64,000 nt of DNA from Terriglobales bacterium (GCA_050745565.1 JBOGKJ010000285.1:2149-66148); one strand, 5' to 3'; positions 37,427-63,728 are shown, numbered from the stretch's first letter. Notes: generated by a model not told the origin, from the sequence alone. Numbers and translations: made by a program.

Positions 37427-37431
37427 CGCCC

Positions 37432-38226: not shown

Positions 38227-38253
38227 CCGCCGGCCCTGGCCGCGGCGCTCGCC

Positions 38254-39489
<1,236 letters not shown>

Positions 39490-39490
39490 C

Positions 39491-40988: not shown

Positions 40989-43334
40989 TCACGCCAGCGG
41001 AGCCGCACCGGGGTCGGCGCCAGCATTGACGTAAAGCGAACACACGCAGCGACGGCAAATCGGGTTACTGCCCACATCGAGCGTGCGGCGGAAGCTCAAC
41101 GCCTCCGGGCTGTTGAGAATCGTGAGCAACGGCTGCTGGCGGATATTGCCAAGCGGCGCGTGAAAAAAGCAGGGGCGGACCTGGCCGTCGGACTCGACCA
41201 CGGCCGACACCCAGGGCGCATTGCAGCGAGGAGCGACCGCCGGCGCCAGGCCCAGTTGGGATTCGAAGTGCCGCACCAGACGGTCCAACTTGGCGGGCCC
41301 CTCGACGATGTAGCCGGAGGCGATTTCTGGCGCGCACTCCCGGACCAGGGCGTCCATCTCGGCCCGCAGCCCGCGAGTGTGCTCGGCGGTAAGACCGAGT
41401 GCCTCGTGGGCGGAGGCCGACCACCCTCCGGGCCGCGCGTCGTGTTGAAAAGCTTCCGGCGAAAGGTCGGCCGCGAGGAACGAAATCGAGCTGAGTCCGA
41501 GTTCCAGGGCGGAACGGACGGTGGCGCGAAGGCAGCCGAAGTTGGCTTGCGAAATGGTGCAGCGACCGGCAATTGTCATCCCCGGGCGTAGATCCCGCAG
41601 CGCCTTGATACCGCGTGCCAAGTGGGCGTAAGCCCCGGAGACATTCCGCACCTGATCATGGGCCGCAGGCGGACCATCCAGCGAAACAATCACGTCATCC
41701 ACGTTGTCGGCCACCAGACACGCCCGTGGCGCCAGCAGCAAACCCGAACTGAGCAACGTTAGCCGCACCCGCTCGCCCCGTAGTATCCGGGCGAGGGCCG
41801 GCAGGTCGGAGTGCATCAGCGCCTCCCCGCCGGACAACACGACCCATCGCACCGCCAGCGAGCGTAGCGAGTTCCGCAGGCCATCGAGATCGGAAGTATT
41901 GAGCTCGCGGGTCTGGCGGATGCGCCAGATGTCGCACATTAGGCAGCGGCAGTTGCAACGGTTGTGCGGAAGCAGCACCAGGATTGGTAGTTGCCGGATG
42001 TAGTGGGGGTCGGACGGGTCGCCCTCCGCGCCAACGGCGCCGGCGGCGGCGGGCAGCGCCCGAGGGCGCGAGGGAGCAGACCCCAGCAGCTTGCCGCCGA
42101 GCCGGAGTTCAGAGCCCAAACACTGCCGGGCGGCGGCGAGCAAATGGCGCACCGGCGCCCGCACCAGACGTTCATGCCCGCCGGCCACGAGCGGCTCCAG
42201 GCCGTGAAGTAGATTTCGCGCGGATCCACTCCAGCGCTCGCCCAGTTCTGGGGCCAGCAGCTGCACGCGGCCGTCCTTTAGCACCAGCGCCACATCGTGG
42301 TGGCGTGCCCCCACCAACAGCTCGGCGGGCGTACTCCGCTCCATTCCGCCCGCGCAGCGTACCGCGATCAAGTCCGCGGCGCCACCGCGCGCTATCCGCC
42401 CGATACCACCCGTCAGGCCCAGGACCGAGCCGGCGCGCCGGGTGACCATGTCGTAGAGCAGGGCTCGGGGATGCAATCCATCGCCGAAGACCTGCGCGGC
42501 GTCGGACATCTCGTCCAGGAGATCGCCGGCGGCGGTCAGTGCCGAGTCGCTTCCGAGGATAGCCTTGGGGTTGTCGCGGATCAGATCGGGCGCGACCGTC
42601 GTCCCCAGCATGAACAAGTTCGAACTCGGACACCAGACCAGAGTGGCCCGCCGCTCGCGCAGAAGGCGGTGACCGTCCGCATCCAGGCCGACACAGTGAA
42701 CGGCCACGGTTCTCGCATCGAGGACCCCGAGTTTGTCAAGCTTCCCGGCTTCCTGGCGGCTGGCCTCGTCGGTGCCTTCCGCCAGATGCAGGATGAAGGG
42801 CGCATCGGAGGGCGCGCGCCTCCACGCGGCGGCGGCATCACCGCCCAGCGCAAGTGAGTGGATCCAACCATAGCGGCGCAGAACCCGAACCGGAAAGTCC
42901 GCATCCAGGCATGCGGCGTAGCAGGGGTTGTGATGGCAGACGGTGGTGACGCCGCACAACAGGTTCTTCAGGCCGCCCCACCAGCAACGCACCTCCTTGG
43001 AAAGCCTGGAATGCTCCTGAACCGGAGAACGGTCGGGCTGGTAGATATCGGCGGCCCAGGCCAGAAAATTGGGGTAAGGTCCGCGGCCGAGACGCGGGAA
43101 CAGATTGAACTCGAGATGCTCATGGGCATTGATCAGGCCGGGCAGGATCATGTAGCCGGACAGATCGAGGTGCTGGGCGCGGCGCGCATAGGCGAGCGGC
43201 ACGGCCTCACCGGCGTCGGGGATTTGGCGGATGGTCGAGCCGGCGATGAGTATCCGGGCCGGAATGCTGGTGGCGGCGTCGAGCGCGATCCGCGCCCCGG
43301 AGATGAGAATCGGGGCGGATGCGGGTGCGCTCAT
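40989..43334 (-). CDS. fusion protein: N-terminal metal-dependent amidohydrolase domain + C-terminal radical SAM domain with SPASM/twitch-like Cys-rich tail
   Basis: One uninterrupted ORF. LPGLINAHEHLEF (HxH), then PHNRCNCRCLMCDIW (CX3CX2C), then CNAPW...RPCFFH...NPICRRCVCSL. Start set at ATG 43334 (ATGA overlap with the upstream stop); the ORF-track start is 43361. Confidence 0.8.
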   Translation of the reverse strand: MSAPASAPILISGARIALDAATSIPARILIAGSTIRQIPDAGEAVPLAYARRAQHLDLSGYMILPGLINAHEHLEFNLFPRLGRGPYPNFLAWAADIYQPDRSPVQEHSRLSKEVRCWWGGLKNLLCGVTTVCHHNPCYAACLDADFPVRVLRRYGWIHSLALGGDAAAAWRRAPSDAPFILHLAEGTDEASRQEAGKLDKLGVLDARTVAVHCVGLDADGHRLLRERRATLVWCPSSNLFMLGTTVAPDLIRDNPKAILGSDSALTAAGDLLDEMSDAAQVFGDGLHPRALLYDMVTRRAGSVLGLTGGIGRIARGGAADLIAVRCAGGMERSTPAELLVGARHHDVALVLKDGRVQLLAPELGERWSGSARNLLHGLEPLVAGGHERLVRAPVRHLLAAARQCLGSELRLGGKLLGSAPSRPRALPAAAGAVGAEGDPSDPHYIRQLPILVLLPHNRCNCRCLMCDIWRIRQTRELNTSDLDGLRNSLRSLAVRWVVLSGGEALMHSDLPALARILRGERVRLTLLSSGLLLAPRACLVADNVDDVIVSLDGPPAAHDQVRNVSGAYAHLARGIKALRDLRPGMTIAGRCTISQANFGCLRATVRSALELGLSSISFLAADLSPEAFQHDARPGGWSASAHEALGLTAEHTRGLRAEMDALVRECAPEIASGYIVEGPAKLDRLVRHFESQLGLAPAVAPRCNAPWVSAVVESDGQVRPCFFHAPLGNIRQQPLLTILNSPEALSFRRTLDVGSNPICRRCVCSLYVNAGADPGAAPLA

Positions 43335-44035
43335 GGTTGGACGGGCGGCGATACCCGCCACACGAAGGTGAGCAGTGCCGGCACCGCGCCTGCGGCGTCA
43401 AAGAGGTCCGGGCGGCCAGCGGCGGCGAAGATGGGTCGCTCCGGCTCGCCCAACCGCGCCTGCTGGCAGCTCAGCAATTGGCAGCCGGCCGCCGTGAATG
43501 CCGCCTCCAGCCGGCGCGGAGGTTGCGGGTAATGCGGAACCTCAGTCCAGTGCCCGTCCGGGGAGGTGAAGCCACGCCGCCAGCCGGCTTCAGGATGGAC
43601 GTCGGCGATCAGGATGTAGGCGCCGGGGCGCGACTGACGGCTCAACTCCCGCGCCAGCGCCGGGACATCAGGCAGATACGCGAGGGCCAAGCAACAAAGG
43701 ATGCACTCGGCCCAATGCGCCGCCAGAGGCAGGCGGAGCACGTCGGCGCGCACCAACCGGGCGCGACCCGCCAAGCGCGAACGAGCACGGGCGAGCATCG
43801 CGGCGGAACGGTCCACCCCGACCGCAGTGCCGGCCCCCAGCGCCATCATCCGTTCCAGCCCTCGCCCGGTACCGCAAGCGACGTCGAGTACAGCCCGGCC
43901 CCGCAGATCGGGCAGCAGCGGCGTCAGCGTGCGCTCCGCCAGCGCTAACAACGGATTGGGTTGCTGGTCGTAGACCTCCGCCCAGGCGTCGTGGGGGCAG
44001 GGTTTTCGGACCATGTACCCCGGCACTGCACTCAT
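43331..44035 (-). CDS. class I SAM-dependent methyltransferase
   Basis: 234 aa, motif I VLDVACGTGRG. ATGA overlaps at both ends. Confidence 0.85.
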   Translation of the reverse strand: MSAVPGYMVRKPCPHDAWAEVYDQQPNPLLALAERTLTPLLPDLRGRAVLDVACGTGRGLERMMALGAGTAVGVDRSAAMLARARSRLAGRARLVRADVLRLPLAAHWAECILCCLALAYLPDVPALARELSRQSRPGAYILIADVHPEAGWRRGFTSPDGHWTEVPHYPQPPRRLEAAFTAAGCQLLSCQQARLGEPERPIFAAAGRPDLFDAAGAVPALLTFVWRVSPPVQP

Positions 44036-45522
44036 AGGCTCTCGCTCTCAGGCTGCCGCTGACGCAGCAATCTCTGCAGCCATCGCAGTTCCACCGGCCA
44101 GGCGTAGATGCGGCAGAGATAGCGCCAGGCGCTCAGGCCCCGCAACAGCCAGCGCCCCCACCGCGGCATGCGGATGTCCTGAATGGTGGGCCAGTGGCTG
44201 GCCACCACGAGCCGGAAATTATCAATCGTTCGCCGCGTACGCGCCGCCAGCCAGGGACTGTGCGGGCTGCGGCGAATGGTGAAGTTGAACCACCGTTCGG
44301 TGGCCCACTCCTCGGGGGTGTTGGGAAACTGAATCTGCGCTTCGACGTCACCGTACATGCGGTCGCGCTGCGGTACCGGCGTGTAGTGATAGAGAATGAT
44401 CTCCGAGGCGGGGTGAATGCGTTTCAACCGGCGGATGAACGCCAGGCATTCCCGCGTGTCACGGTCCGGATCCTTGGGATTGCCGACCACGAAGGAAAAT
44501 TCCGGGATGATGCCAAAGCCACGAATGCGGGCCGCCAATTCCAGCGTCTGCTCCACCCGCAGGTGCTTGTTCATGTCCTGCAAGACCCAGTTGGAGCCCG
44601 ATTCGGCGCCAAAGAAGATCATGGTGGCGCCGGAACGGCGCAACGCCGCAAAGGTGGCGTCGGAAAACCGCAGCATGGCGTCGATGCGGGCCTCGCACCA
44701 CCAGCGCAGATGCAGCGGCGTCAACCGCTCCGCCAGCTCGCGCGCGGTGTCTTCGCGCAGAAAAAAATTGTTGTCGTAGAACTGCACCGCGTCGGCGCCG
44801 TAGTGCGAGCTCAGATGTTGGAGCACGGCGGCGGTGCGAACGGGCGCCTCCATTTTCTCGCGGCTGCCGAAGGCGGTGGCGACACCACAAAAGCTGCACG
44901 GATAGGGACAGCCGAGGCTGGCCTGGTGGACGGCGGTGCGCCGGCCCAGAAACGACGGTAGCAGATAGCGGTCCACCGGCAGACGGTGATAAGGGAGCCA
45001 GGGGAAAGTGCCCGGGTTCTTCATGACCCGCTCAGGATTGTGGTGATGCGCGCCCGCGGCATCCCTATACGAGAGGCCCCGGATTTCCGCACGGCCGGCG
45101 CGGTCCGGCAGGGCGGCGAGCAGCTCCAAAAAGGTGTCCTCGCCCTGGCCGCGTACCACGTAATCGACGTAGGGCGCATTGAGCGCGGCGTCGGGATACA
45201 AGGTGGGAAAATATCCGCCCCAGACGATGGTCACTCCCGGAAACGCGGCCCGCAATGGCCGGCAACAGCTGATGGCCGCGCGCATCTGCGGCCCCGGCAT
45301 GACCGTGGCAGCCAGCACCGCTTGCGGGTGCTGTTTCAAGATCGCGCTGATGCTAGCCACAGGATCGGGGTCGAGGTTGCCGTCGACGATCGTATACGGC
45401 CACCGGCCCTCCAGCACGGCGGCGATGGTCAGGACCGACAGCGGAAAGCGGCGGCTGCGGGGCCGGGTGGCTCGGGGGTTGAAGAGAATAATCATGCCAT
45501 GGGCATTAAAGGCGGTATCCAA
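44032..45522 (-). CDS. B12-binding-domain radical SAM protein (subfamily X)
   Basis: 496 aa. N-terminal Rossmann-like B12-type domain, SLGCPYPCSFC cluster motif, C-terminal YAWPVELRW. The start may be 45495. Confidence 0.85.
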   Translation of the reverse strand: MDTAFNAHGMIILFNPRATRPRSRRFPLSVLTIAAVLEGRWPYTIVDGNLDPDPVASISAILKQHPQAVLAATVMPGPQMRAAISCCRPLRAAFPGVTIVWGGYFPTLYPDAALNAPYVDYVVRGQGEDTFLELLAALPDRAGRAEIRGLSYRDAAGAHHHNPERVMKNPGTFPWLPYHRLPVDRYLLPSFLGRRTAVHQASLGCPYPCSFCGVATAFGSREKMEAPVRTAAVLQHLSSHYGADAVQFYDNNFFLREDTARELAERLTPLHLRWWCEARIDAMLRFSDATFAALRRSGATMIFFGAESGSNWVLQDMNKHLRVEQTLELAARIRGFGIIPEFSFVVGNPKDPDRDTRECLAFIRRLKRIHPASEIILYHYTPVPQRDRMYGDVEAQIQFPNTPEEWATERWFNFTIRRSPHSPWLAARTRRTIDNFRLVVASHWPTIQDIRMPRWGRWLLRGLSAWRYLCRIYAWPVELRWLQRLLRQRQPESESL

Positions 45523-46471
45523 GCCACAGGTAGAAACGCGAGGGCTCGCGGCGCCGCAACAACCTCGCCTTCCAGGGCCGCAGGCGCCAGGCCAGGCCGT
45601 AATCGGGCAGGTGGCGCTCCCAGCGCAAACCCAGGGCCGCGGCTAGCGATTCCATCGTTTCCTGCACCAGGTACTCGCGGCTGCGCAGCGCGTCCGAGCG
45701 CTGCCCAAACTGACGCTGAAAGCGCTGGTGTTTTTCCTCAACCATGCGATCGCCGCTGACCGCCTGCGCGTAGAAGGGCGAATCCAGAATCGCCACCGCG
45801 CCGTCCACCCGCAGACACCGCAGCGCTTCGGCGAGCGTGGACCGGTAATCCTCCGAGTAATGGAACACGGCATTGTAAATCGCCAAGTCGAATTGCGCCT
45901 CGCAGAACGGCAAGTGATCCATGTCCGCCTGATATCGGGAAAAGCGGACGTCTTCGGCCAGATAGTGGCGCGCCGCGCCGAGGCCGTCGTCGGGATGGTC
46001 GAGCAGATCCACCGCGACTGGGCGGTGGCCCATGGCGGTGAGGCGATGGCTCAACCAACCGTTGCCGGCTCCGAGGTCGAGGATGTCGAGGCCGCCGCCC
46101 CGGGCGGCGGCGAGGCGCGGGACGAGGTTGGTCGCCAAGTGGCGGTAACTACAGCCCCGGATGGCCCACTCCCAGGCGTGGCGGCCGGTGCGGTCACTGT
46201 AGGGGAGATCAAGATAATAGGCGGGGTCGGGTGAGCCCCGCCCCTCCTGCGATCGGATGGTGGTGTAGCTCGTCGCGAAGGCGGCGAAGTGCCGGGCCCG
46301 GTCGGCGGCCAAAGCGCGCCAGATGCCGTCACGCAGACCCACCTCGAAACCGCAATGCGGACACAGGATGGCGGAGTCGCCCGCCGGCGGCAGCCCACGG
46401 GCGCAGGCCGGGCAGCGCAGACGCAAGCCGAAAGCGGCGGCGGTGGGCGCCATGGCGGCCGGAGTGCTCAT
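45506..46471 (-). CDS. SAM-dependent methyltransferase with N-terminal zinc-ribbon
   Basis: 321 aa from ATG 46471: CPAC...CPHC ribbon, then ILDLGAGNGWLS motif I. The ORF-track entry (438 aa) is over-extended. Confidence 0.8.
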   Translation of the reverse strand: MSTPAAMAPTAAAFGLRLRCPACARGLPPAGDSAILCPHCGFEVGLRDGIWRALAADRARHFAAFATSYTTIRSQEGRGSPDPAYYLDLPYSDRTGRHAWEWAIRGCSYRHLATNLVPRLAAARGGGLDILDLGAGNGWLSHRLTAMGHRPVAVDLLDHPDDGLGAARHYLAEDVRFSRYQADMDHLPFCEAQFDLAIYNAVFHYSEDYRSTLAEALRCLRVDGAVAILDSPFYAQAVSGDRMVEEKHQRFQRQFGQRSDALRSREYLVQETMESLAAALGLRWERHLPDYGLAWRLRPWKARLLRRREPSRFYLWLGYRL

Positions 46472-47271
46472 GTTCGTTGCAACTCGATCAGCAGGTGATC
46501 CGCCAAGGAGCGGTATCCCCACCAAGCGCCAAAGTGTCGGTCCAATCGCTCCATCCGGGTCAGCAGGCGGGGATGCCGTCGAGCCCAGGGTTCCCAGCGG
46601 GATGAAGGCACCGCAACGCCTACGCCGCGCCACCGCAGCAAACGAAAATGGGGGGCGAAGCGGCGCGCCAGGGCGGGAGCGCAGTAATAGCGCACCCGAA
46701 TTGGCGCACCGGCAATGCGGGCCTCGACGACGCCGTGCCGCAGCCGCCGCAGCCCTTTGCCGAGCTGGCCTTGGGCGAGCAGGCCGGCCATCTCCCAGCC
46801 CCCCCATCGGCCCGACACGCACAACAGCGCCGGCGCGGCCGGCCGCAACAACCGCGCCAGTTGTTCCGCCGCCGCCCGAAGGTCCTCCACACAGTTCAAT
46901 CCCGAGAAATTGGAAAACACTCCATCAAACCGCTCGGCTGGTTGCAGTTCCTGGAGAGCTTCGATCGCCAGCACGTGGACCTCTGCCGAGCCCGCGGCCG
47001 GGACGCGGCGCATGCGCCAGCGCGCCTGTTCCACCATGCGGGCGGATTGATCGCAGGCCCAGACGCTCACACCCCTTCCGGCCAGCCGCGCCGCGTCCAC
47101 GCCTGTGCCGCAGTTGATTTCCAGCACGTGCTGGCCGGGTTGAAACACGCGATCCATGACCCGCCACACCAGGCGGCGCTGGGCGCCGCCGATGCGGGAA
47201 TCGGTGAACACCCGGTCGTACTCGCCGGCGAGGCCGTCAAAGGGCGCCGAGGCAACTGCGGCGGCGTCCAT
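46468..47271 (-). CDS. class I SAM-dependent methyltransferase
   Basis: 267 aa, motif I VLEINCGTGVDA. Confidence 0.85.
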   Translation of the reverse strand: MDAAAVASAPFDGLAGEYDRVFTDSRIGGAQRRLVWRVMDRVFQPGQHVLEINCGTGVDAARLAGRGVSVWACDQSARMVEQARWRMRRVPAAGSAEVHVLAIEALQELQPAERFDGVFSNFSGLNCVEDLRAAAEQLARLLRPAAPALLCVSGRWGGWEMAGLLAQGQLGKGLRRLRHGVVEARIAGAPIRVRYYCAPALARRFAPHFRLLRWRGVGVAVPSSRWEPWARRHPRLLTRMERLDRHFGAWWGYRSLADHLLIELQRT

Positions 47272-48695
47272 TACGCCTCCACCTCAGCGGCGGCTCCCAG
47301 CAGGCCCGAGCGGGCGCTCTGGACCGCGGTTCGAAACGCGTTCAGGTCCGGCTCTGCCGCGCCGGCGCGCTGGCGGCGGTGCAGCTGCACCTCGGCTTCG
47401 AGAAGCTGGTCGGCGTAGCTGTAAAAGCGGCGGGAGTGCCGGCCACGGATGTGCAGCTCGCGATCGGAAGTCTCCGTCCACGGCGCCGAAGCCGTCAGCG
47501 AGTTCTCCAACTCGGCGAAGTACGGCGTCCCTTTGATGGGGTAGGAGACGGTCGTCAGAAAAATATCCGGGTCGGCGCGTTTGACATGGGCCACGGTCGC
47601 CTCGATATCGGCCATCTCCTCGTCCGCATAGCCCCACATCAGGAACATGCCGACCTGAATGCCACGCGCCCGCGCCATGTCCGCCGCCGCCTGCACCTGT
47701 TCCACCTTGACGTCGCGCTGCATGGCGTCGAGCAGCCGCTGCGAGCCGCTCTCCGATCCGATCCAGAGCCGGAAGCAGCCCAACTCCGCCAGCCGGTCGA
47801 GCACGGCGGGGTTGAGCCGGTCGGCGCGCGAAATGCACTCGAATGGAATGTGCAGTCGCCGTTCCCGCATTGCCGCCGCATAGCGTTCAAGCCAGGCGTG
47901 ATGTATCGTGAAGACGTCATCGGCGATCCAGAGCATGTCGGGGGCGTAGCGGCCCAGCACCCACTCGAGCTCTTCCACGACACGGTCGGGGTCGCGCCGG
48001 CGGTGGGTGCGGCCGTAGACGGCGTGGCTGCACCAGCGGCAGCGGTAGGGGCAGCCGCGCGCCGTGATGAGAGCCACGGAGCCGGTGCCGTGGTGCTGGC
48101 GCCAAGCCGCCAGATAGCGTTCGACCGGCACGCGTTCGCGATCCGGCCAGGGCTGGGCATCCAGATCGGCGATCAGCGGCCGGGGCGCAGTCTGGCACAC
48201 TCGGCCGTCGGCCTGCAAAAACGCAAGCCCTCGAATCCCCTCGCAGCCCGTCAGATCCAACCCCCTGCCGCTGTCGCGCGCGCACCGCTGCCGCTCGCGC
48301 AGCACCGGCACCAACTCCTCCAGCGTCAGTTCGCCCTCCCCATACACCACCACGTCAGCGCCCGCCGCCAGGTATTCCGCGGCATACGCGCCCGGCTCCG
48401 GACCGCCGGCCACCGTGACCCAGCCGCTGCGCTTCGCCGCCTGCAGAATTCGCACCGCGTTGCGCCGGGTCATCAGATTGGCGTAAATGCCGAGCACCGC
48501 CGGAGGGCCGGCCTCCAGCACCGACTCGAGCTCGTCGAATGTGCTGAAGGTGCTGTCGAACACCTCCACGGCCATCCCCTGCCGCCGCAGATGAGACGAC
48601 AAATAGAGGATGCCGAGCGGCACGTAGGGCTTCATGATGCGCTGCTCTTTGGCATCGTCGGCGAGGAAGTAACCGTGGGTCAGCAGCAGATCCAT
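47271..48695 (-). CDS. B12-binding-domain radical SAM protein (subfamily Y)
   Basis: 474 aa from ATG 48695: MDLLLTHGYFLADDAKEQRIMKPYVPLGILYL..., ARGCPYRCRWC. Confidence 0.85.
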   Translation of the reverse strand: MDLLLTHGYFLADDAKEQRIMKPYVPLGILYLSSHLRRQGMAVEVFDSTFSTFDELESVLEAGPPAVLGIYANLMTRRNAVRILQAAKRSGWVTVAGGPEPGAYAAEYLAAGADVVVYGEGELTLEELVPVLRERQRCARDSGRGLDLTGCEGIRGLAFLQADGRVCQTAPRPLIADLDAQPWPDRERVPVERYLAAWRQHHGTGSVALITARGCPYRCRWCSHAVYGRTHRRRDPDRVVEELEWVLGRYAPDMLWIADDVFTIHHAWLERYAAAMRERRLHIPFECISRADRLNPAVLDRLAELGCFRLWIGSESGSQRLLDAMQRDVKVEQVQAAADMARARGIQVGMFLMWGYADEEMADIEATVAHVKRADPDIFLTTVSYPIKGTPYFAELENSLTASAPWTETSDRELHIRGRHSRRFYSYADQLLEAEVQLHRRQRAGAAEPDLNAFRTAVQSARSGLLGAAAEVEA

Positions 48696-48697
48696 GG

Positions 48698-50137: not shown

Positions 50138-50170
50138 CGGTCTGCTCCCGGCGCCGCCGCCTGCCGCGGT

Positions 50171-53226: not shown

Positions 53227-53251
53227 TGATGAGACCCATGCAAACTCTTAG

Positions 53252-54277: not shown

Positions 54278-54279
54278 GG

Positions 54280-56936: not shown

Positions 56937-58378
56937 GGCAGCACCTGCGGCGACGACAGGAACAGCAGCTCGCGCAGCCGCGGCCGTCCGAATATCCACA
57001 GACTGCCGGCCAGCAGCGCCACCTCGCTGATCGCCGTCCGGTCCAGCGGCGGGCGCAGCCAGCTCAGCGCCGCCGCCGCCAGCGCGATGGCGACCGCGCC
57101 CAACCCGATCCGCACCGCATGCCGCATCAGCCGCGGCGTCCAAATCGCCCGCAGCACGCAACCCAGGAACCCGGCGGCCATGACCAACTGCGTCACCACA
57201 TCGGCGATGGCGCTGCCCCGCGCACCGGCCGCGCCGGCCAGGACGAACTGCAGCACGACCCCTACTCCCACGCCGGCGGCGGTCACACCTAGGTACGCGG
57301 CGCGGCGCCGTGCCGCCACCAGCACGTAAAACAAGACCGTGTTGAGAAATAGCAGCGGCAGCGCAGGAATGAGCAGGCGCAGTAAACCCGAGGCACTCGC
57401 CAGGCGCGGCCCAAACAACACCGCCAACACCCGCGGCGCCATCTTCCAAACCAACAGAGAGATCGGAACGGACGTGAGCAGGCTGTATTTGGTCAAATGG
57501 GCGGCGTATACCCGGCCCCGTTGGCGTGGGCCCCGCAAAACACGCGCAAGTTTGGGGAACAACACTGTCATCAATAGGCTGGCGGCGAGATAGGCGGCAA
57601 GCAGCAGGTACGCACATGCCTGAAAGCGGCCCAGCACCGCATTGGGGCTGCGCAGCGAAAGCACCAACACGTCGAGCCGGAGGCTGAGCGCCTGCAACAG
57701 CGTCGTCACGCCCAGCGGCAAGGCGGCGAGAAACATCGCCGCTGGCGTGGGCGAGAAGCGGCGCGGGTGCGGCCCGGTGGGGAAACATACGCGCACGAAT
57801 CTCCAGGCCAGTCCGGTTTCCACCATTTGACCTGCCAGCAGGCAGGCGGTAACCATGCCCAGGCTGGCGTGCCAGAACCAGGCCACGCCGACGCACGTCA
57901 GCACGGTGGCGGCATTGGCCCCCTGCACTCCCGCGATGAAGTGCATGCGTTCCAGGGCGCGGAATACCGCCGCGCATCCCTGGCTGTAGGTCTGCAGCAG
58001 CGCCCGTGCCATGAGCAGCCCTAGCAGCAGCCGTCGGCCCGGGTCGTGCAGACCCCACAGCTCCAGCGCCACCGTGCCCACCACCACCACCGTGGCCAGG
58101 CGCCACTTCAACGCCTGCATGGCCCAGAACCACCCGGCCAGTTCGTCCGGCCGCGCCGCCACTTCCCGCGTGACCAGCAGATGCGAACCGCAATCCGGCA
58201 CGAGCAGGAGCACACTTGCCAGCGCCACCGCATAGCCATAGGCCCCCAGCCCTGCCGCCCCGAAACGATGCCCAACGAGGACCGCCATTGCCAGCGTGGC
58301 GATCCGTGCCGCCGACTCGCCCCCCAGCACCGAGAGCAGGTTCAGCAGAAACCCCCGCGGTGGACTACTGGCCGCCAT
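56933..58378 (-). CDS. oligosaccharide flippase (Wzx/MOP family)
   Basis: 481 aa, about 12-14 TM segments, N-terminal pattern typical of polysaccharide biosynthesis/flippase proteins. Confidence 0.8.
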   Translation of the reverse strand: MAASSPPRGFLLNLLSVLGGESAARIATLAMAVLVGHRFGAAGLGAYGYAVALASVLLLVPDCGSHLLVTREVAARPDELAGWFWAMQALKWRLATVVVVGTVALELWGLHDPGRRLLLGLLMARALLQTYSQGCAAVFRALERMHFIAGVQGANAATVLTCVGVAWFWHASLGMVTACLLAGQMVETGLAWRFVRVCFPTGPHPRRFSPTPAAMFLAALPLGVTTLLQALSLRLDVLVLSLRSPNAVLGRFQACAYLLLAAYLAASLLMTVLFPKLARVLRGPRQRGRVYAAHLTKYSLLTSVPISLLVWKMAPRVLAVLFGPRLASASGLLRLLIPALPLLFLNTVLFYVLVAARRRAAYLGVTAAGVGVGVVLQFVLAGAAGARGSAIADVVTQLVMAAGFLGCVLRAIWTPRLMRHAVRIGLGAVAIALAAAALSWLRPPLDRTAISEVALLAGSLWIFGRPRLRELLFLSSPQVLP

Positions 58379-59670
58379 TAAGGAACGCGCCCATCCTCCG
58401 GCGTGGCCGGAATCGCAGCCAGTGAGTAAACCGGATCGGCAGCGCGAATTTCCCGGTAACTCTCCCGGGCCAGCGCCAGACCCGCCAGCATCAGCCAGCC
58501 CAGCAACACCGCCAACACCGTATTGAGCAGTGTTCGCGGCCGCACCGGCTTCTCCGGAGGCAGCGCGGGCGCAATCTGCTGGAATTGCTGCGAACGGGCG
58601 TTGACGCTGACCGAGGCGTTGCGGTAATCCCGCGCCGATGCGGTATAGGTGGCGCTCGCCACGTCATAGGCTTGCTGCTGCTTCGCGACCTCGTCCCGTT
58701 GCCGCACCAGGTCCGGCATGCGCGCGCGCAGGGTGGCGTTCACGGCAGTCAGTTCGGCGTTGGCCGCGGCGATGCCCTGGCGATCCGCGGCCGCCTCTGC
58801 TCCCGCCTGATCCCGCCGCGCCAGCAGTTGATCGCGGACCGGGTTGAGCACGTCCTCGGTGACGCCGATCCGGCTGTCAGAGTCGAGCTGGAGGCGCTGC
58901 AGCGCCTGCTCCAGAAAACGGTCCTGATCGAGGCTCTTCTGCAGATGCACCAGCGGCGGCTGCTGCTGGACGGCGCCGGCCAGAGCCTGGCTCTCGCCGG
59001 TCGCCTGGGCCAGGGCGAGGTTAAGATTCCCCAGCGTCGCGGCCAGCTCCTGCTGGCGCACCAGCAAACCCGCCACCTCCTTCTCCCGTTCGTCCATCTT
59101 TGCCGCCAAATTGACACGGAGCCGGGCCGTCGCCGCTTGTTGCAGCGCCGCCGCGGCGCGGCCCATGCGGTCGCTCAGGAAGCGCTGGGTGGCGTCGGCG
59201 TCGGCCTCGGTGAGGTGTTGGTTGAAGCTGGAAGCGGTCAGCGCCAGGTAATTGGCCAGTTGGGCCGCCATGGCCGCGCTAGGGAAATCCACCTCGATCT
59301 GCAGGAGGCGGGTCGAGCGAGGAATCTCCACATCGAAGCCGTAGCGGCTCCGCAGCAAGCGTGGAGTCAGGCGGTAGGGGGGCTGGTCGAGTTGAAAATG
59401 ATGCAGCGCCTGCGCCACCAACCCATCATTGTCGATGAAGCTGATGTAGGTCGGCAGCAGTGAATATTCCAGTGGCGAAGGCAGTACGCTGGCGTCCAAT
59501 TTCGAGTCCGACACCAGCACGTAGGTGGTGGCGCGGTAGATTCGCGGCGACGCCAGACTGAACAGCAGCGCTGCCAGACCGCATAAAACGCCCCCGCCAA
59601 GAATCCAGTTACGGCCCCGACGCAGGCGGCGCAAGCGCGCAAGCCACGGCTGATCGCGTTGATCAAACAT
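58378..59670 (-). CDS. polysaccharide co-polymerase / chain-length determinant (Wzz/GumC-like, no kinase domain)
   Basis: 430 aa from ATG 59670. N-terminal TM, long Q/A-rich coiled-coil periplasmic region, C-terminal TM after PEKPVRPR. Confidence 0.75.
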   Translation of the reverse strand: MFDQRDQPWLARLRRLRRGRNWILGGGVLCGLAALLFSLASPRIYRATTYVLVSDSKLDASVLPSPLEYSLLPTYISFIDNDGLVAQALHHFQLDQPPYRLTPRLLRSRYGFDVEIPRSTRLLQIEVDFPSAAMAAQLANYLALTASSFNQHLTEADADATQRFLSDRMGRAAAALQQAATARLRVNLAAKMDEREKEVAGLLVRQQELAATLGNLNLALAQATGESQALAGAVQQQPPLVHLQKSLDQDRFLEQALQRLQLDSDSRIGVTEDVLNPVRDQLLARRDQAGAEAAADRQGIAAANAELTAVNATLRARMPDLVRQRDEVAKQQQAYDVASATYTASARDYRNASVSVNARSQQFQQIAPALPPEKPVRPRTLLNTVLAVLLGWLMLAGLALARESYREIRAADPVYSLAAIPATPEDGRVP

Positions 59671-61687
59671 TGTCAGTTGACGCGGGCTCCGGCGCGGCTT
59701 CGCCGCGCATCCCGCTTGTGTGCGCGCTGGCTCGGGGGGTCCGTTCGCCCCAACCCGGTGCACGCGTTGCCTGGGGAAGTTCCCGATAATTACCGCCCCG
59801 CTGATGCCGCGGGCTGGCGGCAGCGGCGCCATGCGCGGGCCGAGGCCGATCCAGCGGACGAACCCAGCCGCAGACGGTGCGGGCGAGAATCCATAGGTCG
59901 TGACCCAGCGACCAACGTTCAAAATATTCCAGATCGCATTCCAGGCGCTGGTGAATCGAAGTGTCGCCCCGCCATCCGTTCACCTGCGCCCAGCCGGTGA
60001 TGCCCACGTGGCCCTGGTGCCGGAGCGCATAGCCCGGTATCTCGCCGCTGAAGCGCTCCACGAAAAAGGGCCGCTCTGGACGCGGTCCCACCAGGCTCAT
60101 CTGGCCGCGCAAGACGTTCACCAACTGCGGCAACTCGTCCAAGTTGGTTCGCCGAAGCCACGCCCCCAGCCGGGTAATGTGGCGATCATCGGCTCGACCC
60201 CAGTGGGTGTCAGGGTTGAACTCCAATGCCGGCCGCATGGTGCGAAACTTCAGCATGCGGAAGTAATGGCCAAGCCGGCCCACGCGGACCTGCCGCAACA
60301 AGACCGGTTCCGGCGAGGTCAGCAGGAGCGCGATACTTATCGCCAGCAGCACCGGCGACAGCAACCCCAGCGCCAGCAGTGCAATCGTCGCGTCCATGCT
60401 GCGTTTTATTCCGTTGTAGGCCATGCCCTCGACTCGGCGCATCGTCCTGGCGTGCTGGTGCCGCCGCAGCCAGAACGGCCAGCGCCCGGCGGCCCAACCG
60501 TAGCGCACGGCGGCGTGGAGATGAAACCCGAGCCGGCGGAGCACATGGACCGCGGAGGTCGCCGCCGACCACCGCCCAGGGCGGGCCGCCGCGTGTCCGC
60601 GGTGAGGACGATGCCGCGGGCACAGCCGGCGCCGCCGGAGGCCGCTCCAAACCCGCGCGTCGGTCACGAAGTGCCGGTGGAGCAGCAAACCGTCTTTGTT
60701 GGCGCTGAAGTTGTCCAGTGCCGCCCCTACGCCCAGTCGCTGCACCCAGATCGCGGTCGCCGGTCGCAACTGGCCGACCGTGGCGCTCCGCAGCCCCGGC
60801 GGCAGGTCCGCCTCGAAAAGCCGCTCGCTCAGCAGGAATACGGCTCCGGCCGCTTCCGCCAGTTGGGTATGCGCCCACGCCGGGTGCCCAGCCGCTGCGA
60901 CAGCCTCTTCCCGGCCACGCTCGAAAAACCACGCCAGTTCCAGCAGCCAGGCCAGGCGGCACCAATTGTGCAGGATGTGGCGGAAGATGTGGAGCGTCTG
61001 AAAAATCAAGGCGTCGCCCGGGGCCAGTACCTCGAATTCGAGGTCGTTCCAAACCACGCGCCGTCGCCGCTCGAAGGCGTCGCGAAGCGCCGGAATACCG
61101 ACGCCATCCTCAGTGGGGTTCCAGAGCTGCGTGTGTACCTCGACGGAACGGGGCATACCTGGCGCAAACAACCGCGCTCCGCCGGGCGGCGGCGCCCCCG
61201 CACCCGGACACCAGTACGTCTCACCGTGGCCGCTATCCTCGCGACGCAGCCGGTAGCCCGCTTGCAGCAGGACGCGACGCGCCGATTCCCGCGCGCTGGC
61301 TGGTATCAGGTAGTCGAAGTCGTAGGTGACGCGCATCCCCAAATCGGGACAGAACAGTGGATACAGACTGAATCCCTTGAGCACGGCGAAAGGAATGTCG
61401 TGCCGCCGGAACAAGCGGTTGGTGGCGGCGAACTCCTGGCGCATCAGCTGCATGCGGTGGTGGTTTTGCCGCGCACACTCCTGCCAGTGCCGGCGTTCGC
61501 ACGTCGGCGCGGCGGCATCGGCCCGCAACCGCGAATGCAGGTAAAGCGTCAACCCGGAAAGGTCCAGCCAGAACCGGTTCCGACGCCATGCCCGCGCCGT
61601 GTACCGGCCGCACCGCTCCCGCGCCGCCACCGAGCCGCCCGACGTGCCGAGAGCGGCCACGACGTCACGCGCCAAAGTTCGGTTCAC
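59663..61687 (-). CDS. fusion: N-terminal NTP_transf_5-like nucleotidyltransferase + C-terminal PglC/WbaP-type phosphoglycosyl (bacterial sugar) transferase
   Basis: Single 674-aa ORF. FAVLKGFSLYPLF...RVTYDFDYLI (NTase-like), then KRSMDATIALLALGLLSPVLL...LKFRTM...DELPQLVNVLRGQMSLVGPRPERP. An internal Met (MRRVEGMAYNG) could in principle give a separate product. Confidence 0.75.
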   Translation of the reverse strand: MNRTLARDVVAALGTSGGSVAARERCGRYTARAWRRNRFWLDLSGLTLYLHSRLRADAAAPTCERRHWQECARQNHHRMQLMRQEFAATNRLFRRHDIPFAVLKGFSLYPLFCPDLGMRVTYDFDYLIPASARESARRVLLQAGYRLRREDSGHGETYWCPGAGAPPPGGARLFAPGMPRSVEVHTQLWNPTEDGVGIPALRDAFERRRRVVWNDLEFEVLAPGDALIFQTLHIFRHILHNWCRLAWLLELAWFFERGREEAVAAAGHPAWAHTQLAEAAGAVFLLSERLFEADLPPGLRSATVGQLRPATAIWVQRLGVGAALDNFSANKDGLLLHRHFVTDARVWSGLRRRRLCPRHRPHRGHAAARPGRWSAATSAVHVLRRLGFHLHAAVRYGWAAGRWPFWLRRHQHARTMRRVEGMAYNGIKRSMDATIALLALGLLSPVLLAISIALLLTSPEPVLLRQVRVGRLGHYFRMLKFRTMRPALEFNPDTHWGRADDRHITRLGAWLRRTNLDELPQLVNVLRGQMSLVGPRPERPFFVERFSGEIPGYALRHQGHVGITGWAQVNGWRGDTSIHQRLECDLEYFERWSLGHDLWILARTVCGWVRPLDRPRPAHGAAAASPRHQRGGNYRELPQATRAPGWGERTPRASAHTSGMRGEAAPEPASTDNV

Positions 61688-62736
61688 GACGCCACCGCCG
61701 CTGTCGCGCCATTCTCCAGCAATTGACGGTACACTGCCGCAGCCGTGGCGGGATCGTTGCCATAGGCGAGGTCGTAGGCGGGAAGGGCCAGCAAAGCGGC
61801 GCGGTGGGCGCCACCGCCCGATGTTCGGGCTAGGCCGCCAAATTCTTCAAGTCGCGATTCGCGCTCAGCCAGGCTGAGGCGCTCGAGCCGGCCCTGCCCG
61901 CGGCCGCCACGATCGAGAAAGACCAGACCGATCGGCCGCACCGGCACCGTCGGCCCGGACACGCTGAAGAGGTCCGCACCCAGGAATGGCACTCCCTGGT
62001 ATTCAAATCGCCGCACCTGATCGCGCAACTGTGGAGAGTGGCCGAGAGCGGAAGGGCGGAACACCGCCGGCCAAAATTGCCCCCACACGCGCATCTCGCC
62101 GAGGTCGCCGTCCAGGAAGCATGCCTGATCGGCGCGCATCTCCAGCCCGAGCGCGCCGGCGGCGTACACCGAACTGGTCTTACCGCTTTCCGGCGGGCCC
62201 AAGATCAGCACCGCCCGCGGACCTGCCGCCACACAGCCACACGCCAGCGGCGTCAGCCCCAGCCACGGCGCGGTCAACTGAAACAGCGTCGCCAGGAAGA
62301 CAGCCGCCAGCGGGCAGTTGGACTCGACCAGATCCGGGGGTAACACCGCGACCGCTTGACGTAATTTCGCGTCCACCGCGGCAAAGCCGCGCTCTCCGAC
62401 GTTGATATAGCCGAGTTGACCGTCGCTGTAAAGCGACAGTTCGGGCCAGGCGGGGAGGCTCGGAGGGCAAACCGGGGCCGGGCGCCGTAGCGCGGTGTCC
62501 TCGATGAGCGTCCAGCGGAAATCGTTGGCGTCAACCTCCGCCGGCGCCTCGCTGGACACCGGCAGGGCGGCTTCCACCCCGGCGAGCAGGCGGGCGGAGT
62601 TGGTCGCCACCTGCAGTTGCCTGCCCATCACCAGGGCCCGCCGGCACAGAGGCGACGGCTCAAATCGGCGCAGGGGATCGAATGTGGCCGGAAGGATGGC
62701 TGCCGCCTCCGTCACTTCAGCACCTCCTCCCGGCAT
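61684..62736 (-). CDS. HPr-kinase-C-terminal-like P-loop protein (HprK-related kinase B-like)
   Basis: P-loop ILGPPESGKTS. The start is ATG 62736 or GTG 62715 (GTGA overlap). The ORF-track 486-aa entry is over-extended. Confidence 0.65.
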   Translation of the reverse strand: MPGGGAEVTEAAAILPATFDPLRRFEPSPLCRRALVMGRQLQVATNSARLLAGVEAALPVSSEAPAEVDANDFRWTLIEDTALRRPAPVCPPSLPAWPELSLYSDGQLGYINVGERGFAAVDAKLRQAVAVLPPDLVESNCPLAAVFLATLFQLTAPWLGLTPLACGCVAAGPRAVLILGPPESGKTSSVYAAGALGLEMRADQACFLDGDLGEMRVWGQFWPAVFRPSALGHSPQLRDQVRRFEYQGVPFLGADLFSVSGPTVPVRPIGLVFLDRGGRGQGRLERLSLAERESRLEEFGGLARTSGGGAHRAALLALPAYDLAYGNDPATAAAVYRQLLENGATAAVAS

Positions 62737-63728
62737 TCCGAGCCACGCTGGCAAAACAAATCCAGATAGCGGGCCACCTCGTGGGGCTCGGCGGCGTAAC
62801 TCAAACGCCGGCAATCGGCGGCCTCGCAAACGCGTGCCAACGTGCGGCGTTGGCCGGCCAGGACGGAAGGCTCGGCGGCCATCAGTTCCGCGTCCCACCG
62901 CCCTAGAATTTCCTGCGACGATATCGGGCTGCACTGCGCCGCGTGACCGGCCTGCCGCTGCAGCACCAGCACCCGGGCGATCGGGATTCCGCGGGAGCAG
63001 CCCGCCTCCGGCACCGCCGGTGCCGGGAGTGGCACGAACAGCGAGAATTCCTGATCGGCGCCCATCTCCAGGGGACGGCCGGCGAGAGCCGGAAAAAATC
63101 GTGCCGCTTCCGGGCGGAGCTTCGCGCATCCGGGCAGCGGCCATGCCACCGCCACCTCACCCTGCTCGGTCACATAGGTGCGATCGTCAGCGACGAATTG
63201 GAAGTCGCGTTGAGCCAGTGCCAGCGCCAGCGTGGATTTGCCCGCGCCGCTGCCGCCCGCCAGCAGCAGCGCACGGCCGTCGCGCACCACGCACGCGGCG
63301 TGCACCCCCACCACCCCCGCCTGCCCTCCCAAAACAGTGAGCAGCACCGGCAGCAGCACCCGCTGCCAGTAGGTGCGGTCCCGGGCCATTGCCGCTGAAA
63401 TCCGGGCCACCGCATGCAGGCTGCGCAGGTCGAGCAGCAGCGCGTTGTCCAGCCCAAAGCTGGCGAACACCAGGTGCTTCAACCCGCGGAAATACGGCTT
63501 GGGCCAGGGCGCCGCGCCTGTCAGGCTCTCGTCCACCCAACAGCGCAGCCGGAAGTAGCCGGAACCCGCCAGACCGGCATCGTCGCTGCTCGGCAGACTG
63601 CTGGAAAACATCCCGAGCAGCTCGGGGCAGTTGGTCGCCACCTGGCAGCACACGCCCGCCAGCCAAAAACTGCCCTCCCAGGGCAATCGCCGCGAGGCCG
63701 GGACCATGTCCGATTGACGAGCCGCCAT
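62712..63728 (-). CDS. HPr-kinase-C-terminal-like P-loop protein (HprK-related kinase A-like)
   Basis: 338 aa. HAACVVRDGRALLLAGGSGAGKSTLALAL. GGAGAA SD 8 nt upstream of the ATG. Confidence 0.65.
   Translation of the reverse strand: MAARQSDMVPASRRLPWEGSFWLAGVCCQVATNCPELLGMFSSSLPSSDDAGLAGSGYFRLRCWVDESLTGAAPWPKPYFRGLKHLVFASFGLDNALLLDLRSLHAVARISAAMARDRTYWQRVLLPVLLTVLGGQAGVVGVHAACVVRDGRALLLAGGSGAGKSTLALALAQRDFQFVADDRTYVTEQGEVAVAWPLPGCAKLRPEAARFFPALAGRPLEMGADQEFSLFVPLPAPAVPEAGCSRGIPIARVLVLQRQAGHAAQCSPISSQEILGRWDAELMAAEPSVLAGQRRTLARVCEAADCRRLSYAAEPHEVARYLDLFCQRGSECREEVLK

Follow-up and report, generated by a model that had tools for sequence, protein, structure and literature searches.

The DNA analysed in this work is a 64,000-nucleotide stretch of a Terriglobales bacterium genome (GCA_050745565.1, JBOGKJ010000285.1:2149-66148; hereafter the window, with a G+C content of 62-70%), in which an array of 17 genes joins putative Wzx/Wzy-type glycan assembly functions to radical S-adenosylmethionine (rSAM) enzymes, methyltransferases (MTs) and an amidohydrolase. 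We describe this array, its conservation among related genomes and the role that it may play. Our results indicate that the rSAM/MT/amidohydrolase block constitutes one evolutionary unit with a kinase and nucleotidyltransferase (NTase) pair, and that this unit is repeatedly found beside undecaprenyl-phosphate (Und-P) glycan machinery.

Organization of the array

The array comprises 17 co-directional open reading frames (ORFs) on the minus strand, tiling positions 40989-63728 with no unassigned space between them (Table 1). Here, K1 and K2 denote the kinases, N the NTase, R1-R5 the B12-binding rSAM enzymes (rSAM1-rSAM5), M1-M3 the MTs, AH the amidohydrolase and SP the small SPASM-type rSAM enzyme. 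The ORF chain reproduced the extent of the array proposed in a first-pass annotation, as well as its eight gene overlaps (61684-61687, 58378, 56933-56936, 51667-51670, 47271, 46468-46471, 44032-44035 and 43331-43334), and every domain call and the gene order were recovered in Pfam and NCBIfam searches. With start codons taken from public gene calls on other assemblies of the source organism, the successive junctions from g01 to g17 measure -4, -4, -8, -1, -4, -7, +2, +25, -4, +33, +2, -1, -4, -17, -4 and -4 nt. Regarding the junction range annotated earlier, the 33-nt gap stands, whereas the 25-nt overlap does not, as the public start of g02 at 62715 leaves an overlap of 4 nt with g01.

The notable gaps within the array are two, of 25 nt (53226/53252) and 33 nt (50137/50171), and internal promoter-like and terminator-like sites occur at or below shuffled expectation; judging from these features, co-transcription of the 17 genes is plausible. 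An OmpR-type response-regulator (RR) gene lies 92 nt upstream of g01 on the same strand, so the array may count 18 genes; this regulator has 228 aa in full on contig L001 of the source genome, and an RR, with a histidine kinase (HK) in some cases, occupies the equivalent position in related loci. The junction between g08 and g09 was also found in GCA_975322235.1 contig 67 and in Logan SRR27067714, and the arrangement is therefore real and not a chimera.

Table 1. Genes of the array and the adjoining regulator gene in the window (TM, transmembrane; aa, amino acids).
Gene	Position	Strand	Predicted product	Basis and remarks
g01 (K1)	62712-63728	-	HprK/ScmC-like P-loop kinase, 338 aa	Hpr_kinase_C; Walker A GGSGAGKS, residues 158-165
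g02 (K2)	61684-62715	-	Paralogue of g01, 343 aa	25% identity to g01; Walker A-like GPPESGKT
g03 (N-PGT)	59663-61687	-	NTP_transf_5 (~1-405) and Bac_transf (~420-606)	Pfam 1.2e-30 and 2.1e-57
g04	58378-59670	-	Wzz + GNVR co-polymerase/chain-length determinant	Two terminal TM helices; no kinase domain; Wzz 1.2e-6
g05	56933-58378	-	Wzx-type flippase (Polysacc_synt)	Pfam 5e-14; at least 8 hydrophobic helices
g06	55428-56936	-	Wzy_C-family polymerase/ligase, 502 aa, ~11 TM helices	Pfam 1.2e-8
g07	54280-55434	-	GT4 glycosyltransferase	Pfam
g08	53252-54277	-	Second GT4 glycosyltransferase, 341 aa	Pfam; start 54277 from public gene calls in two other assemblies
g09 (R1)	51667-53226	-	B12-binding rSAM enzyme	CPFHCAYC
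g10 (R2)	50171-51670	-	B12-binding rSAM enzyme	CPYACNYC
g11 (R3)	48698-50137	-	B12-binding rSAM enzyme	CPYGCNWC; the one rSAM enzyme kept in every variant
g12 (R4)	47271-48695	-	B12-binding rSAM enzyme	CPYRCRWC; paralogue of g11 (37%); anchor of genome scan
g13 (M1)	46468-47271	-	Class I SAM methyltransferase	Pfam/NCBIfam; in types A, B and C
g14 (M2)	45506-46471	-	Class I SAM methyltransferase, 321 aa	Pfam/NCBIfam
g15 (R5)	44032-45522	-	B12-binding rSAM enzyme	CPYPCSFC; TTG start
g16 (M3)	43331-44035	-	Class I SAM methyltransferase	Fused to downstream amidohydrolase in most relatives
g17 (AH-SP)	40989-43334	-	cog0402-type amidohydrolase/deaminase (~1-420) and rSAM/SPASM (~445-781)	Amidohydro_1, Radical_SAM, SPASM
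RR	63820-64000	-	OmpR-type response regulator, 3' end	Response_reg and Trans_reg_C; cut by window edge

Conservation and layout in related genomes

Related loci were collected in two scans, their genes being mapped by tblastn, clustering and homology-based mapping. The first was anchored on R4 (g12) in species-representative genomes; the best 80 of 146 relatives were kept, with a 10-kb flank around the anchor that does not reach past N. Almost all of these 80 loci belong to Acidobacteriota (Terriglobia including Acidoferrales, and Bryobacterales), with a minority from Thermoanaerobaculia, Gemmatimonadota, Rokubacteria and Bacteroidota, and one cultured strain, Paracidobacterium acidisoli 4G-K13. 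The gene order R1 R2 R3 R4 M1 (M2) R5 M3 AH SP is kept in most of the 80 species-level loci, with rSAM proteins mostly 55-70% identical to those of the window. The commonest neighbour of the block is a unit of divergent orientation that pairs an HprK-like gene with a stand-alone NTP_transf_5 gene. In 35 of the 50 loci having at least 3 kb of upstream sequence, the divergent HprK-like gene occurs within 3 kb upstream of the block, and 36 of the 42 well-flanked loci contain K or N. Between K and N stands a second K or a stand-alone copy (~155 aa) of the N-terminal domain of K (hhalign 97.5%). The latter takes the place of K2 in the loci designated type B below (L024:3851-4336, L052:6887-7348 and 12 others).

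The second scan covered metagenome contigs with a profile of the NTase alignment, complemented by look-ups of two NTase homologues. In the resulting type A layout, one strand carries RR, HK, K1K2 (usually joined in one protein), N, a large WbaP-like phosphoglycosyl transferase (PGT), Wzz, Wzx, Wzy_C and two GT4 genes, and the other strand, diverging from the same intergenic region, carries an operon headed by a cytochrome c/DUF5777 barrel fusion, followed by a second Wzy_C gene, rSAM1, rSAM2 and onward. Of the 12 K-K-N loci whose sequence extends 7 kb or more downstream of N, 10 have the series PGT, polysaccharide co-polymerase (PCP), Wzx, Wzy_C and GT4 in the window's order, at 37-60% identity, and K1K2, N and PGT are tightly linked in the NTase-anchored loci, with overlapping or 3-nt-spaced stops and starts. 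The rSAM block lies in the upstream flank of at least 9 of the 22 NTase-anchored loci, a lower bound because the distance from K to rSAM1, 3.7-6.4 kb, strains a 10-kb flank. The neighbourhood of the two halves is hence not a peculiarity of the source genome, a possibility that the first-pass annotation had recognized as fatal to its proposal. A reading of our own, that PCP and Wzx are unique to that genome, was an artefact of the 10-kb rSAM4 flank and was overturned by the NTase-anchored metagenome scan.

Compared with type A, the window has the rSAM block placed after the second GT4 gene, a split kinase, no HK at its usual place and N fused to PGT. We interpret its array as a single-strand rearrangement of a conserved acidobacterial envelope locus, normally consisting of two divergent operons with a dedicated two-component system; the single-strand 17-gene layout, the split kinase and the N-PGT fusion look lineage-specific. 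Therefore, the coupling of glycan and rSAM halves put forward previously holds in part: across Acidobacteriota the rSAM block and neighbouring glycan genes do recur, but the usual layout is divergent and the 17-gene string belongs to this lineage. In a bryobacterial locus (L074), GT4 and rSAM1 genes independently follow each other in this order on a shared strand, 78 nt apart.

In type B loci, K, the K N-terminal domain protein and N precede either GT87 or an outer-membrane barrel lacking annotation, and the glycan neighbours of these loci include a small PGT, a g07-like GT4, GT87, GT9, a Wzx-like protein and Acyl_transf_3. Two loci (L171 and L172) have Wza, Wzc, Wzy_C, a small PGT, a PglD-like acetyltransferase and Wzi near the rSAM block. 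Two further arrangements are R R M1 - GT9 - GT87 - R in a Bacteroidota locus, and R, M1, R, N, GT2, K, GT9 in the HR33 locus. Altogether, at least three non-orthologous Wzy_C groups stand beside the rSAM block; a polytopic family (c20), GT-C-like by topology alone and with no Pfam match, was not counted as glycan evidence. As a separate observation, a convergent four-gene set follows SP in type B loci, encoding a barrel (~345 aa, no Pfam match), a CxxCH protein of ~100 aa, a cupredoxin and a cytochrome c (L171:13026-15364, L172:9444-11730 and L173:12901-15140).

The type C layout, found in 13 metagenome loci, has as its full operon N - M1 - GTP cyclohydrolase II - R3 - M2 - AH - GT1, with GT1 present in 9 loci and K in convergent orientation. 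Upstream of it lie genes for PhyH, barrels, cytochrome c, Wzy_C and RR/HK. The GTP cyclohydrolase II and GT1 of this layout suggest that the core may produce or modify a small, discrete unit and not methylate a completed polysaccharide. An example is L154:9722-18000, with two barrels upstream (also L143, L152, L155, L157-L160, L163 and L165), and the B12-rSAM protein of L154-like loci is 51-53% identical to g11. This operon may represent the minimal form of the system, and we define the core as K, N, M1, R3, M2 and AH because these are retained in it.

With the integration of these layouts, the rSAM/MT/AH block and the K/N pair constitute one evolutionary unit, and this K/N-rSAM unit is repeatedly located beside Und-P glycan machinery. 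The HprK-like kinases and the NTase had formerly been assigned to the glycan half; both accompany the rSAM core even where PGT, Wzx and Wzz are missing, and by gene content they appear to belong functionally with that core and not with the glycan half.

In one subclade, a conserved non-coding leader of ~230 nt separates the cytochrome c/DUF5777 gene from rSAM1 (L013:4800-5050, L016:5010-5265, L017, L019, L021 and L010). It contains a sigma70-like motif (TTTACA-18 nt-TACAAT) and a long predicted hairpin; it had no Rfam match, showed no covariation (the sequences being too similar) and is absent from the window.

HprK-like kinases and the nucleotidyltransferase-PGT fusion

The similarity of K1 to Hpr_kinase_C (E=1.3e-7) lies just below threshold, at 31.8 bits against a 33.3-bit cut-off, and the public record assigns it to PF27840 (ScmC). 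In NCBIfam it is best matched by HprK_rel_B/A and ScmC, over local stretches only, and it matches the HprK structure 1jb1 with E=5e-5. Against TIGR00679 (HprK/P) it reached 30 of 240 bits, with an alignment confined to the P-loop region and not extending over the full length. K2 had no Pfam or NCBIfam match; in most related loci K1 and K2 form one protein of ~675 aa (675 aa in L167-L170; also L105/L136).

In g03, the NTase part displays the hG[GS]...DxD signature of PF14907, with K104, G105, D123 and D125 invariant across 18 aligned homologues. Its AlphaFold2 model (pLDDT 78) most resembles LnuA, TM1012 and ANT(2'')-Ia, although these matches are weak (E about 0.01-0.3). The C-terminal part is a small monotopic PGT with a DELPQ motif and one hydrophobic helix near residue 430, having lost the usual N-terminal domain; it matches WbaP/PglC structures with E=1e-25 to 1e-22, as expected for an initiating PGT. 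The fusion was searched for among 5.8 billion proteins by a method that scores word-sharing candidates only, and 1 of the 41 matches, the source genome's own cluster, was fused, whereas all 17 other NTase homologues are stand-alone proteins of 386-461 aa. A general 'Rosetta stone' reading of the fusion was accordingly rejected, and because the fused form is confined to that cluster it adds little to the case for a K/N-glycan link.

The radical SAM, methyltransferase and deaminase block

The five B12-rSAM proteins comprise two paralogue pairs and a singleton. PF02310 and PF04055 scored above cut-off in g09-g12 and g15, the domain content of class B rSAM enzymes, and CxxxCxxC is intact in all six rSAM proteins. 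Their solved relatives are distant (MgmA, TokK and AprD4, E=1e-12 to 1e-17). R1, 45% identical to its paralogue R2 and 59-70% to its orthologues, is closest to MgmA (9ccb) and TokK, and R3 to AprD4 (3.9e-17). R3 orthologues are 41-61% identical in rSAM4-anchored loci and 50-53% in type C loci, R5 orthologues 52-66% in acidobacterial loci and 41-46% in Bacteroidota and Rokubacteria, and M2 orthologues were found in roughly one half of the loci fetched, among them type B and every type C locus. In a crude hydropathy scan of the block, g09 and g16 each showed a single hydrophobic stretch standing alone, and the remaining proteins showed none; all proteins of the block are predicted to be soluble and cytoplasmic.

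The deaminase part of g17 retains the metal and catalytic residues of cog0402 enzymes (HEH 71-73, H183-L-A-E186, H213 and D262). Its matches in the PDB are MTA/adenosine deaminases (4dyk/4gbd, 4e-10; MTA, methylthioadenosine), TM0936 (1e-6), 8-oxoguanine deaminase and AtzA, with alignments limited to residues ~177-364, and it scored 69 of 522 bits against PRK07228, with guanine/8-oxoguanine deaminase models nearly equal, which is short of an equivalog assignment. The rSAM part contains CNCRCLMC and C-terminal cysteines 704/722/760/763/765, and its core is best matched by BlsE (6.7e-13). The AH-SP fusion was seen only in P0002-P0004 among the matches listed, SP being elsewhere a stand-alone protein of 313-350 aa; most of the best 120 of 1479 matches (E<=1e-10) are M3-AH fusions of ~650 aa (e.g., L171-L173). 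M3, AH and SP are thus a tight three-gene unit whose fusion points vary.

Each turnover of B12-rSAM methylation yields 5'-deoxyadenosine and S-adenosylhomocysteine (SAH). AH may clear these by-products, or its substrate may be an intermediate derived from a purine or pyrimidine, a role that keeps its standing because the type C operon carries GTP cyclohydrolase II. A pure scavenger function would be attractive in view of the six rSAM enzymes, the MTA/SAH-deaminase-like matches and a PNP_UDP_1 gene in locus L085, but AH persists with a single rSAM enzyme and beside GTP cyclohydrolase II. No amidohydrolase homologue was detected in the L085 locus (Bacteroidota); in this one locus the PNP_UDP_1 gene (18168-19007), ~1.3 kb past the last MT gene, may substitute non-orthologously for AH in clearing adenosyl by-products, or may have no connection with the system.

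The glycan-assembly genes

Wzx, Wzy_C and Wzz of the window all score above Pfam cut-offs with consistent membrane topology. Orthologues of g04 hold the same position in type A loci at 37-60% identity, those of g05 are 42-47% identical in type A loci, and g06 shares 41% identity with the Wzy_C found inside the L169 operon. The glycosyltransferase (GT) encoded by g07 is the one recurring beside the rSAM block elsewhere, with homologues of 38-52% identity in types A and B; for g08, the tblastn matches were confined to three fetched loci and were weak (24-30% identity). In the window, neither Wza nor Wzc was detected among the ORFs scanned, whereas both lie beside the rSAM block in L171 and L172. 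The absence of an outer-membrane polysaccharide export (OPX)/Wza protein, a tyrosine kinase and nucleotide-sugar genes noted in the first-pass annotation is borne out for these ORFs, including the 20 outside the array scanned by Pfam. A second Wzy_C gene (392 aa) lies, together with a cytochrome c/DUF5777 gene, upstream of the RR in the source genome, beyond the window; it is orthologous to the Wzy_C gene co-operonic with the rSAM block elsewhere, the Pfam Wzy_C family merging ligases and polymerases. Since Wza and Wzc are missing and this second, ligase-like Wzy_C is nearby, g03-g08 fit an O-antigen-type Wzx/Wzy/Wzz route.

Proposed role and alternative interpretations

We propose, with a probability of about 40%, that the rSAM/MT/AH core makes or tailors an unusual constituent which, phospho-activated by K and N, enters an undecaprenyl-linked O-antigen-type envelope glycoconjugate. 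Two units would cooperate: K1K2-N-PGT-Wzz-Wzx-Wzy-GT4-GT4 as an O-antigen-type, Und-P-based Wzx/Wzy assembly line, and the five B12-rSAM enzymes, three MTs, deaminase and small SPASM rSAM enzyme as the producers or tailors of a heavily methylated constituent. K and N are proposed as the link between them because they are the sole genes of the so-called glycan half that regularly accompany the rSAM core.

The substrates, the order of the steps and the final location of the product that we infer are as follows. The kinase would phosphorylate a hydroxyl of the constituent, N would turn the phosphate into a phosphodiester or a nucleotide-activated form, and loading of the activated constituent onto the lipid carrier would fall to PGT or the GTs; flipping by Wzx, polymerization by Wzy/Wzz and ligation by the second Wzy_C, outside the window, would then deliver it to the cell envelope. 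K1, K2, N, PGT, the six rSAM proteins and AH all retain their catalytic motifs. An HPr-kinase homologue and an NTase make a phospho-linked sugar in the lasso peptides paeninodin and pseudomycoidin (PMC8498205), and this precedent, together with the weak resemblance of the N model to antibiotic-sugar nucleotidylating enzymes, is the reason for proposing phospho-activation by K/N. Furthermore, B12-rSAM enzymes are able to alkylate carbohydrates (PMC12931638), and the nearest solved relatives of SP and R3, although distant, are the sugar-acting BlsE and AprD4.

Several observations weigh against this proposal. Adjacency is the sole link between the two units; a glycan gene of a Pfam-verified family lies within 10 kb in about half only (21 of 42) of the well-flanked rSAM4-anchored loci. 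Acidobacterial genomes are rich in glycan genes, so that some chance adjacency is expected. To our knowledge, the substrates of characterised HprK-family kinases are proteins or peptides and not sugars, and those of cog0402 deaminases are purine, pyrimidine or triazine rings, again not sugars, which means that AH has to be accounted for in another way. The rSAM, MT and AH proteins all score far below curated NCBIfam cut-offs, and the fold matches of N (E about 0.01-0.3) are weak. Finally, type C lacks PGT, Wzx and Wzz but has GTP cyclohydrolase II and GT1, a content that would suit a small molecule equally well or better.

A more direct form of glycan tailoring, the first of two hypotheses in the first-pass annotation, would have the rSAM enzymes and MTs C- and O-methylate or otherwise rearrange the sugars of the undecaprenyl-diphosphate-linked repeat unit, built by PGT and the GT4 enzymes, before flipping by Wzx. 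The 25-nt gap between the second GT4 gene and rSAM1 on one strand, with a similar layout in L074, and the absence of nucleotide-sugar modification genes among the window ORFs scanned are consistent with it, as are the GenK-type C-methylation of carbohydrates by B12-rSAM enzymes and the distant SP-BlsE and R3-AprD4 similarities. We nevertheless consider it rather unlikely: type C keeps the core of K, N, M1, R3, M2 and AH although PGT, Wzx, Wzz and GT4 are missing from it, a purine/pyrimidine-type deaminase would have no role on a sugar except by-product removal, and we know of no precedent for rSAM chemistry on a lipid-linked oligosaccharide, none being present in a 2026 review either.

The GTP cyclohydrolase II of the 13 type C loci, and GT1 in 9 of them, suggest another possibility, namely that the core builds a discrete methylated metabolite, resembling a cofactor or a natural product and derived from a nucleotide or GTP, for which glycosylation or export would be the only further step; the polysaccharide genes would be envelope genes at the same place that share no product with it. 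Such a small molecule would agree with the AH family deaminating amino-heterocycles, with small-molecule O-nucleotidyltransferases as the nearest folds of N, and with the periplasmic cytochromes c, cupredoxin and outer-membrane barrels that accompany the system. It is hard to reconcile with the conserved coupling of K1K2, N and PGT (N and PGT being fused in the source genome), with the Wzy_C gene co-operonic with the rSAM block, and with the absence of GTP cyclohydrolase II from the window and most type A and B loci; we hold it to be improbable. A further proposal, in which the core, with GTP cyclohydrolase II in one variant, would build a hypermethylated, nucleotide-derived heterocyclic or nucleoside-like unit joined by a phosphodiester to an envelope glycan, appears quite unlikely as well. 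If true, it would mean a previously unknown class of surface-glycan decoration by radical chemistry in soil Acidobacteriota.

The divergent layout usually found, with 3.7-6.4 kb between the units, might also reflect two unrelated operons juxtaposed by rearrangement, sharing an envelope or regulatory neighbourhood only. L106 and L115 carry K-N-PGT without an rSAM block within 8 kb, and L006 and L173 an rSAM block with neither PGT nor Wzx nearby. Against such independence, the rSAM core is joined by K and N in three architectures and several phyla, and associations with non-orthologous glycan genes have arisen repeatedly and independently, making it very unlikely.

About as improbable is the modification of a ribosomally synthesized peptide with post-translational modifications (RiPP) or a protein, where K would phosphorylate and N glycosylate a peptide, in the manner of phosphorylated lasso peptides or the SynChlorMet (SCM) cassette, and the B12-rSAM enzymes would C-methylate it, as in polytheonamide or bottromycin. 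K matches ScmC/HprK, the best NCBIfam match of SP is ScmE, models for RiPP C-methyltransferases and ApyD are weakly matched by the R proteins, the array converges with a MacB-type ABC exporter at 36032-40750, and phosphorylated lasso peptides offer a K+N precedent (PMC8498205). Nevertheless, the model scores are 4- to 10-fold under cut-offs, no PqqD-like RiPP recognition element (RRE) was matched in any of the 17 array proteins, nor a lasso cyclase or protease among them, and stand-alone SP proteins (313-350 aa) are too short for an RRE. Unassigned coding space within the array amounts to at most 33 nt per gap, and a search of 25-119-aa ORFs outside large genes yielded no conserved small ORF in 83 loci, in agreement with the lack of a convincing precursor peptide remarked upon before. 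The best small-ORF cluster (6 of 83 loci) was rejected, being non-coding because it is conserved in several frames. With neither precursor nor RRE, a RiPP is therefore unlikely.

The least probable alternative, and also an earlier hypothesis, is a block that makes or methylates a membrane lipid (iso-diabolic acid, branched glycerol dialkyl glycerol tetraether (brGDGT) or hopanoid) given a head group by the glycan genes: although Acidobacteria lack Mss and mostly Tes, leaving their membrane-spanning-lipid pathway an open question (PMC13159169), and R proteins weakly match ladderane-lipid, HpnJ and HpnR models, the membrane-spanning lipid/brGDGT pathway was rejected because P. acidisoli is the only named isolate with the block among the 80 loci, whereas nearly all subdivision 1 and 3 isolates make iso-diabolic acid (PMC13159169), the hopanoid side chain (adenosyl/inosyl-hopane) was dropped as no hpn or shc genes occur in any locus, the neighbourhoods of the examined loci contain no fatty-acid, glycerol-ether, squalene-hopene cyclase or hpn genes, and K, N and AH have no obvious lipid role.

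Comparison with known systems

Regarding Wzx/Wzy O-antigen assembly (WbaP/PglC-type PGT, Wzx, Wzy, Wzz and WaaL), the C-terminal half of g03 through g08 supplies PGT, a kinase-less Wzz, Wzx, Wzy_C and two GT4 enzymes. Unlike such loci, the window lacks nucleotide-sugar or OPX genes among the ORFs scanned, its PGT is deprived of the N-terminal domain and fused to a Pol-beta-type nucleotidyltransferase, and the operon opens with two HprK-like kinases and runs into nine rSAM/MT/deaminase genes. In LicA/LicC/LicD phosphocholine and CofC/CofD F420 systems, an alcohol is converted to a phosphate and an NDP-alcohol, followed by transfer of the phospho-unit; the succession of K, N and PGT may be likened to these in logic only, with no homology claimed.

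The lasso peptides paeninodin and pseudomycoidin share with the window a P-loop HprK-like kinase adjoining an NTase, a pair that in pseudomycoidin makes a phospho-linked hexose (PMC8498205). The window differs in having no cyclase, protease, RRE or precursor and in its partner, a polyprenyl-phosphate PGT. Likewise, g01 matches ScmC of the uncharacterised SynChlorMet cassette (PF27840; TIGR04249 local), and ScmE is the best rSAM-family NCBIfam match of the rSAM/SPASM part of g17. Scores are nonetheless low (ScmC 29.1 vs 125 bits, ScmE 64.5 vs 400, ScmF 51 vs 400), there is no PqqD homologue, and the window has one SPASM enzyme instead of two, plus five B12-rSAM enzymes.

Class B rSAM clusters (GenK/GenD1, Fom3, TokK, CysS, PoyB/C, bottromycin MTs, BchQ/R and HpnP/R) resemble g09-g12 and g15 in the B12-binding and CxxxCxxC core, and in gathering several paralogues beside class I MTs; the difference lies in the glycan-assembly context, for which no characterised case was found in the literature searched. 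The cog0402 metal and catalytic residues of g17 (1-420) are those of MTA/SAH/5'-deoxyadenosine deaminases (TM0936 MtaD, P. aeruginosa 4dyk/4gbd and DadD) and aminofutalosine deaminase, and the known enzymes remove by-products of rSAM and MT chemistry. However, the match is remote (69 vs 522 bits), with guanine/8-oxoguanine deaminases and AtzA nearly equal, and AH is fused to M3 or SP; we know of no housekeeping MTA/SAH deaminase fused to an MT or a SPASM enzyme.

Novelty and significance

While the glycan genes of the window are ordinary, the K-N-B12-rSAM-MT-deaminase-SPASM system and its coupling to glycan assembly appear to be new: the literature searched contained no characterised counterpart of this system, nor, as had been supposed, of a Wzx/Wzy locus with this many rSAM enzymes, and a 2026 review of B12-dependent rSAM enzymes makes no mention of polysaccharides or glycans. 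The locus is widespread, with 146 relatives of g12 and more than 1000 metagenomic homologues of the methyltransferase-deaminase fusion, and Acidobacteriota are among the most abundant soil bacteria, with barely characterised envelopes and specialised metabolism. Should both parts share a product, rSAM tailoring would extend to cell-surface glycoconjugates, and envelope biogenesis in soil bacteria would demand cobalamin. The question is experimentally tractable, since the cultured P. acidisoli 4G-K13 carries a version of the locus (L052; NZ_QVQT02000005.1, around 232-254 kb).

Neighbouring genes in the window

The 3' end of the array is convergent with a MacA/MacB-type tripartite ABC efflux set on the plus strand (36032-40750), consisting of an HlyD-like adaptor, an ABC ATPase and two MacB_PCD/FtsX permeases; none was seen at the array-end position in related loci with annotated flanks. 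Longest-ORF calling is unreliable in this high-GC window (e.g., for g06) and produces overlapping false ORFs; thus, long alternative-frame or antisense ORFs at 55428-58193 (minus), 59900-61726 (plus) and 38260-39492 (minus) were discarded as non-genes. A scan of the window and four related loci at the Rfam gathering level returned tRNA only and no riboswitch, the sole match in the window being a tRNA gene at 2531-2604 (minus). Two further regulatory pairs were found, a sigma54-dependent response regulator with a PDZ/PAS histidine kinase, followed by CarboxypepD_reg-domain and GWxTD-domain proteins (27629-35549, minus), and a second HK with a sigma54 activator (20035-24007, plus). Lastly, an LpxL-like lipid A biosynthesis acyltransferase gene is followed by a PMT_2/ArnT-like GT-C gene at 10800-13378 (plus), their longest ORFs overlapping by ~70 nt, and the two may be a lipid A/lipopolysaccharide modification pair of the source genome.

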